Origin: an uncultured Gemmatimonadales bacterium
Lineage (GTDB): Bacteria; Gemmatimonadota; Gemmatimonadetes; Gemmatimonadales; Gemmatimonadaceae
NCBI GenBank assembly: GCA_963701965.1
Contig: OY969695.1
Location: 1,696,001-1,760,000, forward strand
Length of the DNA stretch: 64,000 bases
Reading direction: 5' to 3'
Made by a program: the position numbers and the translations under genes
Notes under the pieces: generated by a model
Told to the model about the DNA's origin: nothing
Seen by the model: the letters and a program-made list of their open reading frames with translations, nothing else
The model's database searches: none
Shown here: in pieces, positions 20,067-26,462 of the stretch
Layout: every line of letters begins with the position of its first letter
How positions within the stretch are numbered: position 1 is the stretch's first letter

Positions 20067-20987
20067 ATGCGCATTCTGATTCTCGGAGCGGGAGCGATCG
20101 GCGGATACTTCGGCGGACGCCTGCTCCAGGCCGGCCGCGACGTGACGTTTCTCGTGCGTCCCAAACGCGCCGCCCAGCTGGCCGAAACCGGCCTGGTCAT
20201 CCGGAGCCGGTTCGGCGACGCGACGGTGCCGCATCCACCCACGGTGCTCGCCGACACGCTGCGCGGGCCGTTCGATCTGGTGATCGTGAGCGCCAAGGCG
20301 TACGATCTGGAGAGCGCGATCCGCGATGTGGCGCCCGCCGTCGGACCCAAGACCGCCATTCTGCCATTGCTCAACGGACTGCGGCACATCGACGTCCTCG
20401 AGGCGCACTTTGGCGCGGGGCCGGTGCTCGGCGGACAGTGCCTGATCGCCGTGACGCTGGATGAGGCCGGACGCATCCTCCATCTCAACGAGAACCAGTC
20501 GATCACGTTTGGCGAGCGGGCCGGCGGACGGTCGGCCCGTATCGACGCGATTGCCGCCGCGCTCGGCGGCGCGACGTTCGACGCCCGCGTGAGCGAATCG
20601 ATCCTGTTGGACATGTGGGAGAAGTGGGTGTTCCTGGCCACGCTGGCGGGCGCCACATGCCTGATGCGCGCGCCCGTGGGGGATATCGTCTCGGCCGGCG
20701 GCGCCGCGTTCGGCGAACAGCTCCTCGCCGAGTGCGCCGCGATCGCCGCGGGGGCCGGCTATCGGCCGCGGCCGGCGTTGATCGATAACGCGCGCCAGAC
20801 CGTCACCGCACCGGGGTCCCCGCTCACCGCGTCAATGCTGCGCGACGTCGAGCGCGGCGCGCGCACCGAGGCGGATCACGTCATCGGCGATCTGCTCGCG
20901 CGCGCGGGGTCAACCGACCCCCGTCTCCTGCGACTCGTGGCGCTGAACCTGCGCGCCTATGACGCCCGCCGGTCCCGAACGGCGTAA
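20067..20987 (+). CDS. panE: 2-dehydropantoate 2-reductase (ketopantoate reductase family)
   Basis: ILGAGAIGG, KAYDL, LLNG, MWEKW, SMLRD...TEAD. Confidence 0.9.
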   Translation: MRILILGAGAIGGYFGGRLLQAGRDVTFLVRPKRAAQLAETGLVIRSRFGDATVPHPPTVLADTLRGPFDLVIVSAKAYDLESAIRDVAPAVGPKTAILPLLNGLRHIDVLEAHFGAGPVLGGQCLIAVTLDEAGRILHLNENQSITFGERAGGRSARIDAIAAALGGATFDARVSESILLDMWEKWVFLATLAGATCLMRAPVGDIVSAGGAAFGEQLLAECAAIAAGAGYRPRPALIDNARQTVTAPGSPLTASMLRDVERGARTEADHVIGDLLARAGSTDPRLLRLVALNLRAYDARRSRTA

Positions 20988-21024
20988 AAAAGCAAGGGAC
21001 CCGCGCCACGCGGGTCCCTTTGCT
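20986..21024 (-). terminator. Rho-independent terminator for pqqA (probably bidirectional)
   Basis: AGCAAGGGACCCGCG-cca-CGCGGGTCCCTTTGCT stem; the A6 tract at 20986-20991 gives a U-tail on the minus strand. Confidence 0.8.
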
Positions 21025-21041
21025 CGGCCTGGCAGTGCGCT

Positions 21042-21116
21042 TTAGCGCCGGGCCACGTACGCGGTGACTTCCATCGTCACTTCGACGACTTCGAATTCGG
21101 GTTTGGACCACGTCAT
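21042..21116 (-). CDS. pqqA: Pyrroloquinoline quinone precursor peptide PqqA (24 aa, MTWSKPEFEVVEVTMEVTAYVARR)
   Basis: Not in the ORF track; read manually. W-x-K-P-x-F leader and E-V-T-x-Y core of PqqA; GGAG RBS. Confidence 0.9.
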   Translation of the reverse strand: MTWSKPEFEVVEVTMEVTAYVARR

Positions 21117-21153
21117 CCTATGCTCCATTGGCTAGGGTTGCACCAGTTGTATA

Positions 21154-21169
21154 AGCACCCGGCGTGCCA
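21154..21169 (-). promoter_or_regulatory. Sigma54 (-24/-12) promoter of pqqA
   Basis: Minus strand TGGCACGCCGGGTGCT: GG-N10-GC spacing with consensus TGGCAC. Confidence 0.8.
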
Positions 21170-21197
21170 CGCGGGACCATTTGCGTAACACGCTTTC

Positions 21198-21210
21198 TTT
21201 CAGTCACTTA
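21198..21210. promoter_or_regulatory. IHF-like site between enhancer and sigma54 promoter
   Basis: TTTCAGTCACTTA resembles WATCAA-N4-TTR and lies in an AT-rich tract. Confidence 0.4.
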
Positions 21211-21247
21211 GATTGCGTGCTCGAGTATTCATGTGGGGACGATTGGG

Positions 21248-21282
21248 TGGGGGATTCGCCCCGAACTGGGTGAAATCACCCA
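21248..21282. promoter_or_regulatory. Tandem palindromes, probable enhancer (UAS) for the adjacent sigma54 activator
   Basis: TGGGGGATTCGCCCCG (21248-63) and TGGGTGAAATCACCCA (21267-82), about 80-115 bp upstream of the -24 box. Confidence 0.6.
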
Positions 21283-22628
21283 CTGATCCCGAATTTCTTG
21301 AGCCGATAGCGCAGCGTGTCGCGACTGATGCCGAGGCGGCTCGCCGCTTTGGTCTGGTTCCCTCCCGCCTCGCGCAGCGCCTGCTCGATCATGGAGCGCT
21401 CCCATTGGACCAGATCCACGCCGGCCGGTGGGCGGCTCTCGGGATCGCCGGGCGGCTCGACCAACGACAGATGCTCGGCATCAATGGCGGGCCCGCGACT
21501 CCACAGCACCGCGCGCTCAATGACGTGGCTCAGCTCGCGCACGTTCCCCGGCCATGAATAGGCGAGCAGCGCATCGCGCGCCGGGGGTGCGATCTCGCGC
21601 ACCTCGCGTCCGTACTTCGCGCTCGAGCGCCGGAGAAAGTCGCCGGCCAACAGCAACACGTCGTCGCCGCGCTCCCGGAGCGGCGGTAATCGCAGCAGGA
21701 TGACGGCGAGCCGGAAGTACAAGTCCTTCCGAAACTGCCCGCGCTGCGCCTCCCGCTCCAAATCGCGATTGGTCGCGGAGAGAATGCGCACGTCGACCTT
21801 GCGGTCGCGGACGCCGCCGACGCGCCGCACCATCCGCTCTTCGATCGCGCGCAACAGCTTGCCCTGCAGCGCCAGCTCGACGTCGCCGATCTCGTCGAGA
21901 AAGAGAAACCCGCCTTCGCCCGCCTCGAAGAGCCCGATCTTCGATTCCTTCGCGTCGGTGAACGCGCCGCGCTCGTGCCCGAACAACTCGGCTTCCATGA
22001 GCGTGGCAGGCAACGCCGTACAATTGACCTCGATGAACGGACGGGTCGCCCGCGGGCCGGACGCATGAATGCTGCGGGCGATCAACCCCTTCCCCGTGCC
22101 CGTCTCGCCGGTGATGAGGATCGGCGGCACATCGTCGAGAGCCGCGACCTGCGCGGCGCGGTCCAGCACCGCGCGCATCGCGGGCGACTCGCCGATGATG
22201 CCGGCGAACGGCATTTCGCGCTTCGTGCGCCCCCGGTAATAGGACAGCTCCTGGCGCATGAGCGCCTGCTGCCGCGCCCGATCGGCCAGCAGCTTGAGCT
22301 CATCGAGATCGACGGGCTTCTTGAGGTAGTCGAACGCCCCGCGCTTGACGGCGTCGACCGCGCCCTCGATCGTGCCGTAGGCCGTCATGATGATCACCGG
22401 CACCGCCGGATCGAACTCGCGGATGCGCTGCAACAACTCGATGCCGCTCATGCCGGGCAGACGCACGTCGAGGAACACGACGTCGGGTCGCACGCGCTCC
22501 AGCATCTCCAGCGCCTGCTCCGCCGTGCCGGCGACTTCCGCCTCGTACCCGGACTCGTTCAAAAAGGCCTTGATCGAACGGGCGAGGGTTCGCTCGTCGT
22601 CGACGATCAGCACCGTCGACCCGTTCAT
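21276..22628 (-). CDS. Sigma54-dependent response regulator (NtrC/AtoC family)
   Basis: REC (LIVDDE, FLDVRLPG), AAA+ (GETGTGK, GAFTDA, FLDEIG, WPGNVREL), Fis HTH (GGNQTKAASRLGISRDTL). Confidence 0.95.
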   Translation of the reverse strand: MNGSTVLIVDDERTLARSIKAFLNESGYEAEVAGTAEQALEMLERVRPDVVFLDVRLPGMSGIELLQRIREFDPAVPVIIMTAYGTIEGAVDAVKRGAFDYLKKPVDLDELKLLADRARQQALMRQELSYYRGRTKREMPFAGIIGESPAMRAVLDRAAQVAALDDVPPILITGETGTGKGLIARSIHASGPRATRPFIEVNCTALPATLMEAELFGHERGAFTDAKESKIGLFEAGEGGFLFLDEIGDVELALQGKLLRAIEERMVRRVGGVRDRKVDVRILSATNRDLEREAQRGQFRKDLYFRLAVILLRLPPLRERGDDVLLLAGDFLRRSSAKYGREVREIAPPARDALLAYSWPGNVRELSHVIERAVLWSRGPAIDAEHLSLVEPPGDPESRPPAGVDLVQWERSMIEQALREAGGNQTKAASRLGISRDTLRYRLKKFGISG

Positions 22629-24100
22629 GCGGCCGTCTCCGCCGGGAGCCAGACGCGCGCCGTGGTGCCCCCGCCTTCGCCGTGGCGACTGGCGATAGCG
22701 AGGCGGCCGCCGTTCTGCTCCACGTAGCGCTTCGCGATGGCCAGGCCCAGCCCCGTGCCTTCGGGGCGGGTCGTAAAGAAGGGCTCGCACACCGACGGGA
22801 GCACGCTCTCCGGAATGCCGCGCCCCGTGTCGCTGATCTCGACCGTGATCCCGCTGTCATCGGACCGCGCCGCGATCCGGAGCCGCCCGCCTTCCGGTCC
22901 CGGCATCGCGTCGATGGCGTTGGCGATGATCTCCAACAGCGCTTGCTCGATCTGCATGGGATCGACCCGAATGGGCGGCAACGTCGCCGCGACCTCCATA
23001 TCGAGCGTGATACCGTGCTCGCGCATCGGTCCCGCCACGGCGGGCAGCAGATCGTCGACCAGCGTGGCTACGTTTTCCCGCAACGGGTGAAAGGGAGCTG
23101 GCCGCGAGAAGCTCAACAAATGACCGACGCGGCGGTCGAGACGATCGACCTCGTCGATGATCGTCTGGAAATGCTCGCGCGCGTCGGGGACTGCGGCCCG
23201 GTGGAGCCCCAACTGCGCCGCCGCCCGCAGACTGGCCAGGGGATTCCGGAGGCCGTGCGCCACCGCGGCCGCCATTTCGCCGATCAATGCCAGGCGCTCC
23301 GACTGGACGAGCTGCGCCTGTTTTGCATCGAGCTCGGCGCGCGACAGCCGGAGCTTCTCGGTCATCTGGGCGAAGGCGCGGGCTAGCGTCCCCACTTCGT
23401 CCGACAATGTCACGTCGATGGGAGATGTGAGATTGCCGGCGCCCACCGCCACCATCGCATCGTTCAGGGCGCGGATCGGGCGCGTCAATCCGCGCGCGAT
23501 GAGCCACGATGCCACCACCCCCGTACCCAGCGCCAACACCAGCATCGCGATCAGGGTCCGGCGTTCGCCGGCGACGATGGCCGCCAGCTCCGCGTAGGCG
23601 CCGCGCACGCTCGACTCGCGTTGCCGCCGATAGACGTCGCGGTTGACATCCGCCAGAATTGGCATCAAGCCATTCCGAAGGTCGCGCGTCGCCAACTGAT
23701 AGGCGGCAACGCGCTGGCCGGAGTCATACAGCGTGAAGACCTGTCCCACGACGCGATCAATGGCGTTCTGCAGCGCGCGCACCGTGTCGGCGAGCCCCCG
23801 CTCATCGGGTCTCAGCTCGGACTGCCATCGTTGCTGCCAGTAGTTGATCACCTGACCGGTGACCTGATATTCCTTGCGGCCCTCGGGGCTCATGCCCGTC
23901 AGGTATCGCCACACGGCGTCCGTCTGCTTCGACATGATATCTTCGAGCTCGCCGTACGTGCGATTGCGCGCCATGTTCTCGCCGAGCGTCTCCAGCGCGG
24001 CGCGCTCCAGCAAGTTGATGCGAATGGCTTCGGCGGCGATCAGCAAAACCGGAATCGCCGTCAGCGAAAATCCGAGGAGCAGCTTGCGCTGAAAGGTCAT
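22625..24100 (-). CDS. Membrane sensor histidine kinase (periplasmic helical sensor, HAMP, HisKA, HATPase)
   Basis: Two TMs, HAMP (DEVGTLARAFAQM), H-box VAHGLRNPL, DTGRGI, PFFTT, GTGLGL. Confidence 0.93.
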   Translation of the reverse strand: MTFQRKLLLGFSLTAIPVLLIAAEAIRINLLERAALETLGENMARNRTYGELEDIMSKQTDAVWRYLTGMSPEGRKEYQVTGQVINYWQQRWQSELRPDERGLADTVRALQNAIDRVVGQVFTLYDSGQRVAAYQLATRDLRNGLMPILADVNRDVYRRQRESSVRGAYAELAAIVAGERRTLIAMLVLALGTGVVASWLIARGLTRPIRALNDAMVAVGAGNLTSPIDVTLSDEVGTLARAFAQMTEKLRLSRAELDAKQAQLVQSERLALIGEMAAAVAHGLRNPLASLRAAAQLGLHRAAVPDAREHFQTIIDEVDRLDRRVGHLLSFSRPAPFHPLRENVATLVDDLLPAVAGPMREHGITLDMEVAATLPPIRVDPMQIEQALLEIIANAIDAMPGPEGGRLRIAARSDDSGITVEISDTGRGIPESVLPSVCEPFFTTRPEGTGLGLAIAKRYVEQNGGRLAIASRHGEGGGTTARVWLPAETAA

Positions 24101-24776: not shown

Positions 24777-26253
24777 ATGGGAAGAAAACCCGGAGCTTCA
24801 GCCACAGTCTATTTCCAAGTCGACCAGGGCGGGGACACGCCCCTGCAACACCAGATATATAGTGGCATCCGCGACGCGATTCTGAAGGGCGCGCTCATCC
24901 CCGGCGCGCGGCTGCCGTCGTCTCGGTCGCTCGCTGACGAGCTTGGTGTCTCGCGCACGACGGTCGTCTTTGCCTTGGGTCAGTTGCAAGCCGAGGGGTG
25001 CGTGATCTCGGCCGGCGCGGCGGGGACGTTCGTGGCGCGCACGCTGCCCGACACCCTGCGCCGCGTGCGCCGGACGGGCGGCGGCGCGGTGCTCTCCCGG
25101 CTCGCGACGACGCTGCTCGAAGCGCCGCCGCCGGCCGTGCGCATTCCGGGGCCGCCGCGCCCGTTCCGCGTAGGGACGCCGGCCGTCGAGCAGTTCCCGG
25201 TCACCGTCTGGGCGAGGCTCGCTGCGCGTCGCCGTCGGAGCGTCTCGGCGTCGCTGCTCGACTACAGTGCCATGGGCGGGTATCGGCCCCTGCGCGAGGC
25301 GATCGCCGGACACGTGGCCGTCGGGCGGGGCGTACGGTGTGCGCCCGAGCAGGTCGTCATCATGGCCGGTGCGCAGCACGCCCTGACCTTTACCGCGCGC
25401 ATGTTGCTCGATCCGGGCGACAAGGCGTGGCTCGAGGAACCCGGGTACATCGGCGCCCGCCACGCGTTGATGGTTTCCGGCGCGACGATCGTGCCGGTCC
25501 CCGTCGACGCCGAGGGCCTCAACGTCGCGGCGGGCATCCGGCTCGCGCCGTCGGCGCGGATGGTCTATGTCTCCCCGTCGCATCAGCATCCCCTCGGCGT
25601 GTCGCTGAGTCTCACCCGGCGGCTGGCCCTGTTGCAGTGGGCGGCGCGCAGCGGCGCGTGGGTCATGGAGGACGACTACGACAGCGAGTACCGCTACGGC
25701 GGGCGGCCTATGCCCGCAATGTACGGCCTGGACACCTATGGTCGTGTCATCTACGTCGGCTCGTTCAGCAAGACAATGTTCCCCTCGCTCCGCCTGGGGT
25801 TCATTGTCGTGCCCGACGAGCTGGTCGACGCGTTCGCCGCCGCGCGGCCGAGGGTCGAGCAGCATCCGCCGACCTTGGATCAAGTCATTCTCGCCGATTT
25901 CATCACGGACGGACACTTCGCGCGGCACACGCGGCGCATGCGCCAGGTGTACGCCGAGCGGTACAATGCCATCCGTCGGGCGGCGGCGCGATATTGCCCC
26001 GAGACCATCGAGCTCTATCCCAGCGACACGGGGCTGCACGTCACCGGCGAGCTGCTGACCGTGCGGAGTGACGTGCGGGTGTCCGAATGCCGCGCGGCGG
26101 CGTGGCATCGAGGTCGGGCCGCTGTCACACTATTACTGCTCCGCTCTGGCCAAGCCGCGGCCCGGCGTCATCCTCGGATTCGCCGCCGTCGATCCCGCGC
26201 GCATCGCCGCCGGCATGCGCACGCTGGCCGAGGCCATTCGCGATCAGGCGTGA
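24777..26253 (+). CDS. MocR/GabR-family PLP-dependent regulator; +1 indel at ~26086
   Basis: GntR wHTH (LPSSRSLADELGVSRTTV) and aminotransferase domain (EDDYDSEY, GSFSKTMFPSLRLG). The C-terminus (GVILGFA) continues in ORF 26068..26253. Confidence 0.9.
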
Positions 26254-26462
26254 TTGCCAGGCCACGAGACCCGTGGCCTCGCGCGTCCGACGCCGCCCGC
26301 GGACACTCGTCGCCGCGAGACTGGCGATGGCGAGGATGGTGGCGATCGCCCAGATGAGACGCTGGCCCAGCCACAGGGACCAGCGGAGGACGCGGAGCAG
26401 TTGGATTCGTGTCATGGGAAGGGGATAGCCGGCCCGCGGCTTGCGTGTGCCATCCCCGCAAC

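Follow-up and report, generated by a model that had tools for sequence, protein, structure and literature searches.

In the window, i.e. the whole 64-kb stretch of DNA analysed, which comes from a soil bacterium assigned to the Gemmatimonadales by its relatives, a sensor kinase, an NtrC-type activator and a short peptide gene follow one another on the minus strand, together with these features:

20986..21020, minus strand: intrinsic terminator, 12-bp stem (21020-20994) plus T6 tail
21042..21116, minus strand: pqqA, 24-aa PQQ precursor peptide, second genome copy, assigned from PF08042, TIGR02107 and identity to the operon copy
21123..21126, minus strand: ribosome-binding site GGAG, 6 nt 5' of the pqqA ATG, read from sequence
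21154..21169, minus strand: sigma54 -24/-12 promoter, GG at 21168-21167, GC at 21156-21155, predicted +1 at 21143
21198..21210, plus strand: AT-rich IHF-like site of uncertain function, one mismatch to the consensus
21248..21263, no strand assigned: second, degenerate palindrome, predicted activator site, 8/12 match, 19 nt from the first
21267..21282, no strand assigned: perfect palindrome TGGGTG-N4-CACCCA, predicted enhancer (UAS), conserved upstream of the box
21276..22628, minus strand: NtrC-type response regulator, 450 aa, with receiver (D54), AAA+ domain with GAFTDA loop and Fis-type HTH
22625..24100, minus strand: sensor histidine kinase, 491 aa, with TM, four-helix bundle, TM, HAMP, HisKA (H282) and HATPase

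The first-pass annotation had described this arrangement as a PqqA frame with its own ribosome-binding site and a strong terminator, placed directly downstream of an NtrC-type activator and a sensor kinase, in a window holding neither pqqB, C, D or E nor a quinoprotein gene, and each of these points was borne out. In profile searches the 24-aa product scores 24 bits against PF08042 (cut-off 21.1) and 30 against TIGR02107 (cut-off 20), and the E-x-x-x-Y motif of PqqA is present as a C-terminal EVTAY. The terminator lies some 20 nt past the pqqA stop, folds at about -32 kcal/mol (the search returned two terminators, against 0.5 in shuffles) and is shared from the other side by a convergent panE-like gene that stops at 20987. 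The stretch from the end of the activator gene to pqqA yielded no terminator-like site, so that read-through from one into the other is possible. Searches of the window gave no match to pqqB, C, D or E, nor any to PF01011.

The sigma54 box proposed in the same annotation is also upheld: the spacing is exactly GG-N10-GC, 10 of 11 consensus positions match, and it is the top-scoring site of the whole genome when scored with a matrix trained solely on relatives, the congeners being in the training set. A search for a sigma70-type promoter at the stand-alone pqqA gave none. The perfect palindrome, which overlaps the activator stop codon 114 nt upstream of the GG, is the sole perfect copy in the 5.1 Mb genome; other single matches are weaker, mostly coding-looking and lack a paired box. 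Of the two tandem palindromes that had been claimed, this first one thus stands, whereas the second is degenerate, although the best-scoring neighbouring palindrome is spaced 17-21 nt from the first one in all 50 relatives scored. A third palindrome, present in 41 of 60 orthologues, is absent from the short leader here. The supposed IHF tract fared less evenly, since a site with one mismatch exists but the genome encodes a single HU/IHF-family protein, below both IHF cut-offs; at two mismatches or fewer such a site occurs in 37 of 57 relatives, against 23 in shuffles.

The activator and kinase genes overlap by ATGA. The activator retains the receiver phospho-Asp, the AAA+ Walker A and B motifs and a Fis-type HTH, and the position of its GAFTGA loop reads GAFTDA at 221, a variant listed among those retaining activity in the available text of PMC4641369. 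The best NCBIfam matches of the pair are AtoC and AtoS, with all equivalog cut-offs unmet (AtoC 458/714, NtrC 412/559, ZraR 373/760, AtoS 208/646 bits). Between its two TM helices the kinase carries a periplasmic domain (about residues 27-180) that is predicted to form an antiparallel four-helix bundle (pLDDT 88). This model superposes on 3va9 with Z 15.9 and rmsd 2.1 over 125 aligned residues, helical bundles scoring high generally; PF12729 matches 9 of 73 sensor family members, the Atlas value is 0.94, and neither Foldseek against the PDB (E <= 0.001) nor a profile search of the PDB returned a match. As modelled, the sensor is of the 4HB_MCP_1/CHASE3-like four-helix-bundle type, at a level above the subfamily. 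Nine residues are invariant in the 73 sensor sequences (R27, R45, R47, R158, R161, Y49, W64, W92 and Y157), and the taxon names among the best 120 of 513 kinase-search matches are Gemmatimonadales or Gemmatimonadaceae. The gene for sigma54 itself, rpoN, lies at C1:5046401-5047832 and is full-length, but as assembled here a frameshift splits it; this is likely an assembly error, because further genes are frameshifted too and rpoN is intact in three of five congeners (G001, G002 and G005; broken elsewhere in one, partial in one).

A search of the rest of the genome for pqqBCDE, further pqqA copies and PQQ dehydrogenases found, 2 Mb from the stand-alone copy, an intact pqqABCDE operon that includes a pqqA of its own, together with six PQQ-dehydrogenase loci; motifs point to XoxF-like enzymes in this genome. 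The operon's pqqB, C, D and E (C1:3672084-3675150) are all above NCBIfam cut-offs, and its pqqA promoter has no sigma54 box. Absence of pqqE and pqqC, which the first-pass annotation considered damaging to a role in PQQ synthesis, is therefore not the case.

Comparison with relatives ties the unit to PQQ. Among 401 genomes the kinase sensor domain occurs in 77, all of which have pqqC, while 11 pqqC genomes lack it and none of 313 pqqC-negative genomes has it, a count drawn from genomes that are kin rather than independent and genes that are mostly linked. Sixty-nine of 80 kinase loci were evaluable, and the kinase-regulator-pqqA order proves to be kept across the order: pqqA lies within 600 nt of the activator in 60, and the other nine have pqq genes within 3 kb. 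Orthologous pqqA promoters carry the sigma54 box in 57 of 60 cases and the upstream palindrome in 50 of 60; pqqB directly follows pqqA in 57 of the 60 loci. Across the order, the unit usually stands at the head of a whole pqqABCDE operon. Three loci have an insertion after the activator, and there the palindromes stay beside pqqA, so that these are no artefact of the stop codon. Of 80 genomes with the kinase, 62 carry the composite of palindrome and -24/-12 box (reversed-pattern control, 0), at pqqA in 61 of them, and the three other sites all precede a PqqU-like gene. Where an operon pqqA has no kinase linked to it, the pairing of palindrome and box is absent, and five rearranged pqqBCD-pqqA-pqqE loci have the box in three cases and the palindrome in one. 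Extra perfect palindromes in relatives were unconvincing in four of seven cases (three without a box, one inside a long open frame). Across 60 loci no conserved accessory gene was found upstream of the kinase, the largest gene cluster there being an efflux adaptor (23/60). As the genome encodes 13 sigma54 activators, it is through this co-occurrence that pqqA is assigned to the adjacent one.

These comparisons bear on the earlier suggestion that the peptide feeds a different radical-SAM RiPP pathway. Three other radical-SAM proteins in the genome do match the PqqE model, but weakly (36-61 bits), whereas the peptide is identical to the operon PqqA at 23 of 24 residues, the genome encodes a genuine PqqE (534 bits) as well as PqqD, pqqB is the usual neighbour in orthologous loci, and the kinase never occurs without pqqC. 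We reject this reading as highly improbable; the homology and gene-neighbourhood evidence supports a role for the peptide in PQQ synthesis.

The stand-alone state of pqqA is probably derived, as judged from a quick tree with a long-branch root. One rival reading is that operon splitting left the unit behind as a relic, the operon pqqA supplying the precursor in this strain and the sigma54 copy contributing little or nothing. The second pqqA in the operon, the frameshift in rpoN as assembled, the missing third palindrome and the failure to find the other predicted targets, PqqU and DUF3280, in this genome all speak for this. Nevertheless the unit shows no damage in its kinase, activator, box, perfect palindrome or terminator, eight of the nine base differences between the two pqqA copies fall at third codon positions, stand-alone copies recur in three genera, and in four congeners (G001, G003, G004 and G005) the kinase-linked copy is the sole pqqA found, their pqqBCDE lacking one. 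We consequently regard a relic as unlikely.

Instead, this second pqqA copy is likely switched on by the adjacent kinase and activator via sigma54, as the conserved layout suggests, to raise PQQ supply. The periplasmic four-helix bundle would read a signal, and phosphate would pass from H282 to D54 of the activator, which would then bind both palindromes; with the AT-rich tract bending the DNA, sigma54 polymerase would open the promoter at about 21143 and yield a transcript of some 150 nt, terminated at the hairpin. The peptide would be consumed by PqqD/E/B/C from the distant operon. The first-pass annotation envisaged a dedicated switch setting PQQ output through precursor supply alone. Comparative evidence makes the adjacent system a likely dedicated activator, but 'alone' does not hold here: because the operon has its own pqqA without a sigma54 box, the unit would boost precursor supply rather than be its sole setter, topping up the operon pqqA. 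To the four congeners 'alone' does apply, and there the kinase-linked copy would gate PQQ synthesis.

The same sites precede other genes in relatives. Across the order they are found at promoters of pqqABCDE and pqqA-pqqE, and also ahead of genes for a PqqU-like importer and for an exported protein resembling DUF3280 (DUF3280 match 27.5, cut-off 30.1); the last two gave no match in this genome. In genomes with the kinase, box plus palindrome occurs upstream of 13 of 45 PqqU-like loci, as against 0 of 19 in kinase-less genomes and none of 4000 windows drawn at random from this genome, the sites being missing at 32 of the 45 and the positives coming from three genera only; six of the 13 positives have their only palindrome of 10/12 or better downstream of the box. 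The relatives' protein matches YncD at E 4e-76, the sole PDB family under 1e-8, and, of six named PQQ-contact residues in an alignment read by hand, four are identical (K274, R304, R365 and R536), one is conservative and one changed (Y99 to F, Q84 to L). The gene is likely a PQQ importer on this homology, and the pattern suggests a make-and-import PQQ regulon in some Gemmatimonadales genera.

Might the pair, like AgmR/ErbR or MxbDM, be a general regulator for alcohols, methanol or lanthanides, with pqqA one of many targets? The presumed XoxF-like enzymes would suit such a role. Known PQQ regulators, moreover, co-regulate dehydrogenases and pqq genes, according to the available text of PMC12997753. 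Against this, neither box nor palindrome was found within about 600 nt upstream of the six dehydrogenase loci (start positions estimated), a joint scan of the whole genome for box and palindrome gave the pqqA site only, and composite sites away from pqqA all precede a PQQ import or DUF3280-like gene. This evidence counts against a broad regulon only, not against a methanol or lanthanide signal, and leaves the general-regulator reading improbable. Since the sites precede pqq, import and DUF3280 genes, and not dehydrogenases in this genome, we favour reading the pair as a putative regulator of PQQ supply.

As for its signal, the leading candidate is periplasmic PQQ itself, though on balance this is less likely than not; the four-helix bundle would then be a PQQ receptor. 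PqqU uses Arg-plus-aromatic chemistry for PQQ, as described in the text available of PMC12124388, and the analogy with the invariant arginines and aromatics of the sensor is suggestive only. If true, this would be a cofactor-sensing homeostatic circuit in which PQQ making (pqqA) and importing (pqqU) are switched on together, and which in several Gemmatimonadaceae would ration PQQ via one 24-residue precursor, with the enzymes under another promoter.

Each component is of a familiar type, and the novelty lies in the wiring; no description of sigma54 control of pqqA or of such a system was found in the titles and abstracts searched, most subscription journals lying outside that coverage. The unit offers a concrete kinase, activator, binding motif and promoter for PQQ control, directly testable. 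It shares with AtoSC and ZraSR (NtrB/NtrC-type) the membrane kinase, REC-AAA+-HTH activator, -24/-12 promoter and tandem upstream sites, but differs from AtoSC, NtrC and ZraR in falling far below their equivalog cut-offs, in its predicted four-helix-bundle sensor and in having a cofactor precursor peptide as its target. MxbDM controls pqqA, and neither MxbDM nor AgmR/ErbR is known to be a sigma54 enhancer protein. AgmR/ErbR (Pseudomonas pqq operon) and MxbDM (Methylorubrum; role shown for mxaF in the part available of PMC5784242) likewise place PQQ synthesis under signal-dependent control and, unlike the pair here, also drive dehydrogenase genes (PMC12997753, in part). Among methylotrophs, Hyphomicrobium denitrificans, Methylovorus sp. 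MP688 and Methylobacterium aquaticum 22A similarly carry pqqA copies apart from the operon, with expression that differs from that of pqqBCDE; in the sections available, one report gives five pqqA copies, three separate from the operon (PMC9851590), and another describes pqqA1A2 as regulated apart from pqqBCDE (PMC5784242). Those sections name no regulator or sigma54 promoter for the extra copies, whereas the copy here has its own kinase and activator. For PqqU/YncD, the TonB-dependent PQQ importer with which the relatives' protein shares homology and the four contact residues, import and synthesis were suggested to be generally regulated independently (PMC12124388, in part); the shared sites instead suggest co-regulation in some Gemmatimonadales genera and, if the pqqU link holds, would provide a counter-example.

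The anatomy proposed for 20986-24100 by the first-pass annotation was borne out, with kinase, activator, pqqA, sigma54 box and hairpin all present:

24100-22625, minus strand: sensor kinase, 491 aa
22628-21276, minus strand: activator, REC-AAA+-HTH, 450 aa, with an ATGA overlap with the kinase gene
21116-21042, minus strand: pqqA ORF, 24 aa, above curated PqqA cut-offs

A hairpin with a T6 tail lies 3' of the pqqA ORF on the minus strand; a panE-like (ketopantoate reductase) gene at 20067-21020, which is ~4.3-4.5 kb more distant in four congeners with other genes intervening, converges on the same hairpin. The 160-nt spacer between activator and pqqA contains a perfect palindrome (TGGGTG-N4-CACCCA) that overlaps the activator stop codon and occurs as a single copy in the 5.1-Mb genome, an AT-rich tract carrying an IHF-like site with one mismatch, and a GG-N10-GC box with a predicted +1 at 21143. 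Of the two tandem palindromes claimed previously only this first holds as such, the second, 19 nt beyond it, being a degenerate copy. As reported earlier, no pqqB-E or quinoprotein gene lies here, with no pqqB-E or PF01011 match in the window.

Elsewhere in the host genome, a second pqqA, identical to the window copy at 23 of 24 residues, is the first gene of an intact pqqABCDE operon (C1:3675286, contig C1) that is divergent from an ECF sigma gene; neither a GG-N10-GC box nor the palindrome was found in the region upstream of it. Six PQQ-dehydrogenase loci, one of them frameshifted, are also present. The operon, its near-identical pqqA and these dehydrogenases together rule out the alternative that the peptide feeds a different radical-SAM RiPP pathway, and with them present a role in PQQ supply is not refuted. 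The window pqqA is therefore an addition in this genome, where another source exists. Accordingly, the earlier proposal of control through precursor supply alone is not supported in the host, whose operon has its own pqqA, but fits the anatomy of four congeners (G001, G003, G004 and G005), in which a pqqBCDE operon lacking pqqA lies beside an ECF sigma gene and the kinase-linked pqqA is the only copy found (G004 is 67% complete, and the two matches in G005 are one locus on overlapping contigs). An ECF sigma gene adjoins the pqq operon in most members examined of the host family; at locus L006:11396-12302 it is accompanied by a small Cys/His-rich anti-sigma-like ORF, divergent from the operon.

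The host rpoN (G000:C1:5046401-5047832) is full length but frameshifted; in five congeners it is intact in three, broken at another place in one and partial in one. Since further genes of the same assembly are frameshifted, namely an XoxF-like gene (C1:2655578-2657099) and a MocR-type regulator (window 24777-26357), an assembly error is the likelier explanation for rpoN, and the frameshifts in all three are probably assembly indels. The single HU/IHF-family gene found in the host (L002:362-676) is nearer IHF than HU, intermediate between the IHF alpha and IHF beta models and below both IHF cut-offs.

Conservation was assessed in the best 80 of 130 loci of kinase relatives (L068-L147), all from Gemmatimonadota and nearly all labelled Gemmatimonadales or Gemmatimonadaceae; 11 were dropped because of contig ends, leaving 69 evaluable. 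The kinase-regulator-pqqA order is kept in 60 of these 69, with pqqA no more than 600 nt from the activator, and these 60, drawn from the same best 80, carry the sigma54 box in 57 cases and the upstream palindrome at 11/12 or better in 50. The gene 3' of pqqA is pqqB in 57, pqqE in one and none in two, the last two matching G001 and G003 and not being independent of them. Among the remaining nine loci, an insertion separates the activator from pqqA in three, where the palindromes remain at pqqA, and the other six run from kinase and activator into pqqB onward; the five of these fully seen have the order pqqBCD-pqqA-pqqE (box in three, palindrome in one). An ABC transporter (ATPase and permease), a candidate PQQ exporter, follows pqqE in ~42/53 loci of L068-L147; its closest host matches are only ~40% identical.

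A strict composite site (palindrome, 95-125 nt, box) was found in 62 of the 80 genomes that carry the kinase; the reversed control gave 0. In relatives the distance between the first palindrome and the GG falls mainly into two groups, 125-126 nt and 134-138 nt, which differ by roughly one turn of the helix; it is 114 nt in the window and 78 nt in congeners. A third palindrome copy, with a possible role in feedback or as a roadblock, lies within the predicted transcript 50-53 nt downstream of GG in 41 of the 60 promoters (33 at exactly 52), and is missing from the window's short pqqA leader. All 77 of 401 phylum genomes with the sensor domain fall within the 88 with pqqC, a co-occurrence that is no statistical test because the genomes are kin and the genes mostly linked.

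In the host family, G000, G001, G003, G004, G005, G127, G363 and G145 carry the unit in stand-alone form; in G022, G253, G309 and G412 pqqE alone follows it. Across all the arrangements seen, pqqA is the sole gene kept beside the promoter. In a quick kinase tree of 42 chosen rows, rooted on long branches, the rearranged forms group (support 89) inside operon-type forms, and this nesting suggests that the stand-alone state is derived. A second, different sigma54 activator, ~40% identical and with an N-terminus PAS-like by eye, lies directly upstream of another pqqA at L188:5010-6672 (G145), L056:5402-6547 (G002) and L058:9955-11265 (G024); GAGAC/GTCTC-type repeats replace the TGGGTG palindrome there, and pqqA is stand-alone in G145 and G002. 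This is possibly another input on precursor supply.

A joint scan of the host genome for palindrome and box returned the pqqA site only, with no joint site upstream of its PQQ dehydrogenases. In relatives, three composite sites lie away from pqqA, as judged by eye from coordinates, and all three precede a gene for a TonB-dependent receptor that, among solved structures, is nearest to E. coli YncD/PqqU (E 4e-76); the PqqU residues K274, R304, R365 and R536 are kept, Y99 is replaced by F and Q84 by L. We surveyed 500 nt upstream of 64 PqqU-like genes, drawn from 80 matches with the weakest paralogues and the discovery paralogues in G090 and G414 left out. In kinase-bearing genomes the box was found in 18/45 regions, and with a palindrome (10/12 or better) in 13/45; in kinase-less genomes the box was found in 0/19. 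Of 4000 random windows of the host genome, none had both sites. Positive regions come from three genera, mostly one. At L222:486-4572 (G414) a PqqU-like gene under a composite promoter has a PQQ-dehydrogenase-like ORF immediately after it. The same site pair precedes a small exported DUF3280-like protein in G001, G003 and G005, and is absent at three other homologues in kinase-bearing genomes and at one in kinase-less G002. Neither a PqqU-like nor a DUF3280-like gene was found in the host genome. PMC12124388 takes a lack of synteny to suggest that import of PQQ and its synthesis are, in general, controlled separately from each other; the sites shared by pqqA and PqqU-like genes point against this for part of Gemmatimonadales.

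Structure prediction gives a four-helix bundle for the periplasmic region of the kinase (pLDDT 88), resembling 4HB/CHASE3-type sensors, although sharing a fold does not identify the ligand; 29 columns are invariant in 73 sensor sequences, five of them Arg, two Trp and two Tyr. Every predicted target would increase periplasmic PQQ, and no dehydrogenase is among the targets; on these grounds our preferred, tentative guess is that PQQ itself is the ligand of a homeostatic circuit, though the signal may instead be alcohols, lanthanides or a partner protein.

Earlier work records separate pqqA copies (PMC9851590), signal-dependent control of pqq operons (PMC12997753), a Gluconobacter operon whose sole promoter is that of pqqA (PMC8102297), and GAFTDA, the loop sequence of the window's activator, among activity-keeping variants (PMC4641369). 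Among the titles and abstracts found, within incomplete literature coverage, none dealt with sigma54 control of pqqA, and the wiring of the unit is apparently undescribed so far. The unit is real, well conserved and made of parts of known kinds, and from footprinting only we infer that its kinase-activator pair probably activates pqqA for PQQ supply. The pair shares its way of working with NtrB/NtrC-type enhancer systems, but is no orthologue of AtoSC, NtrBC or ZraSR.
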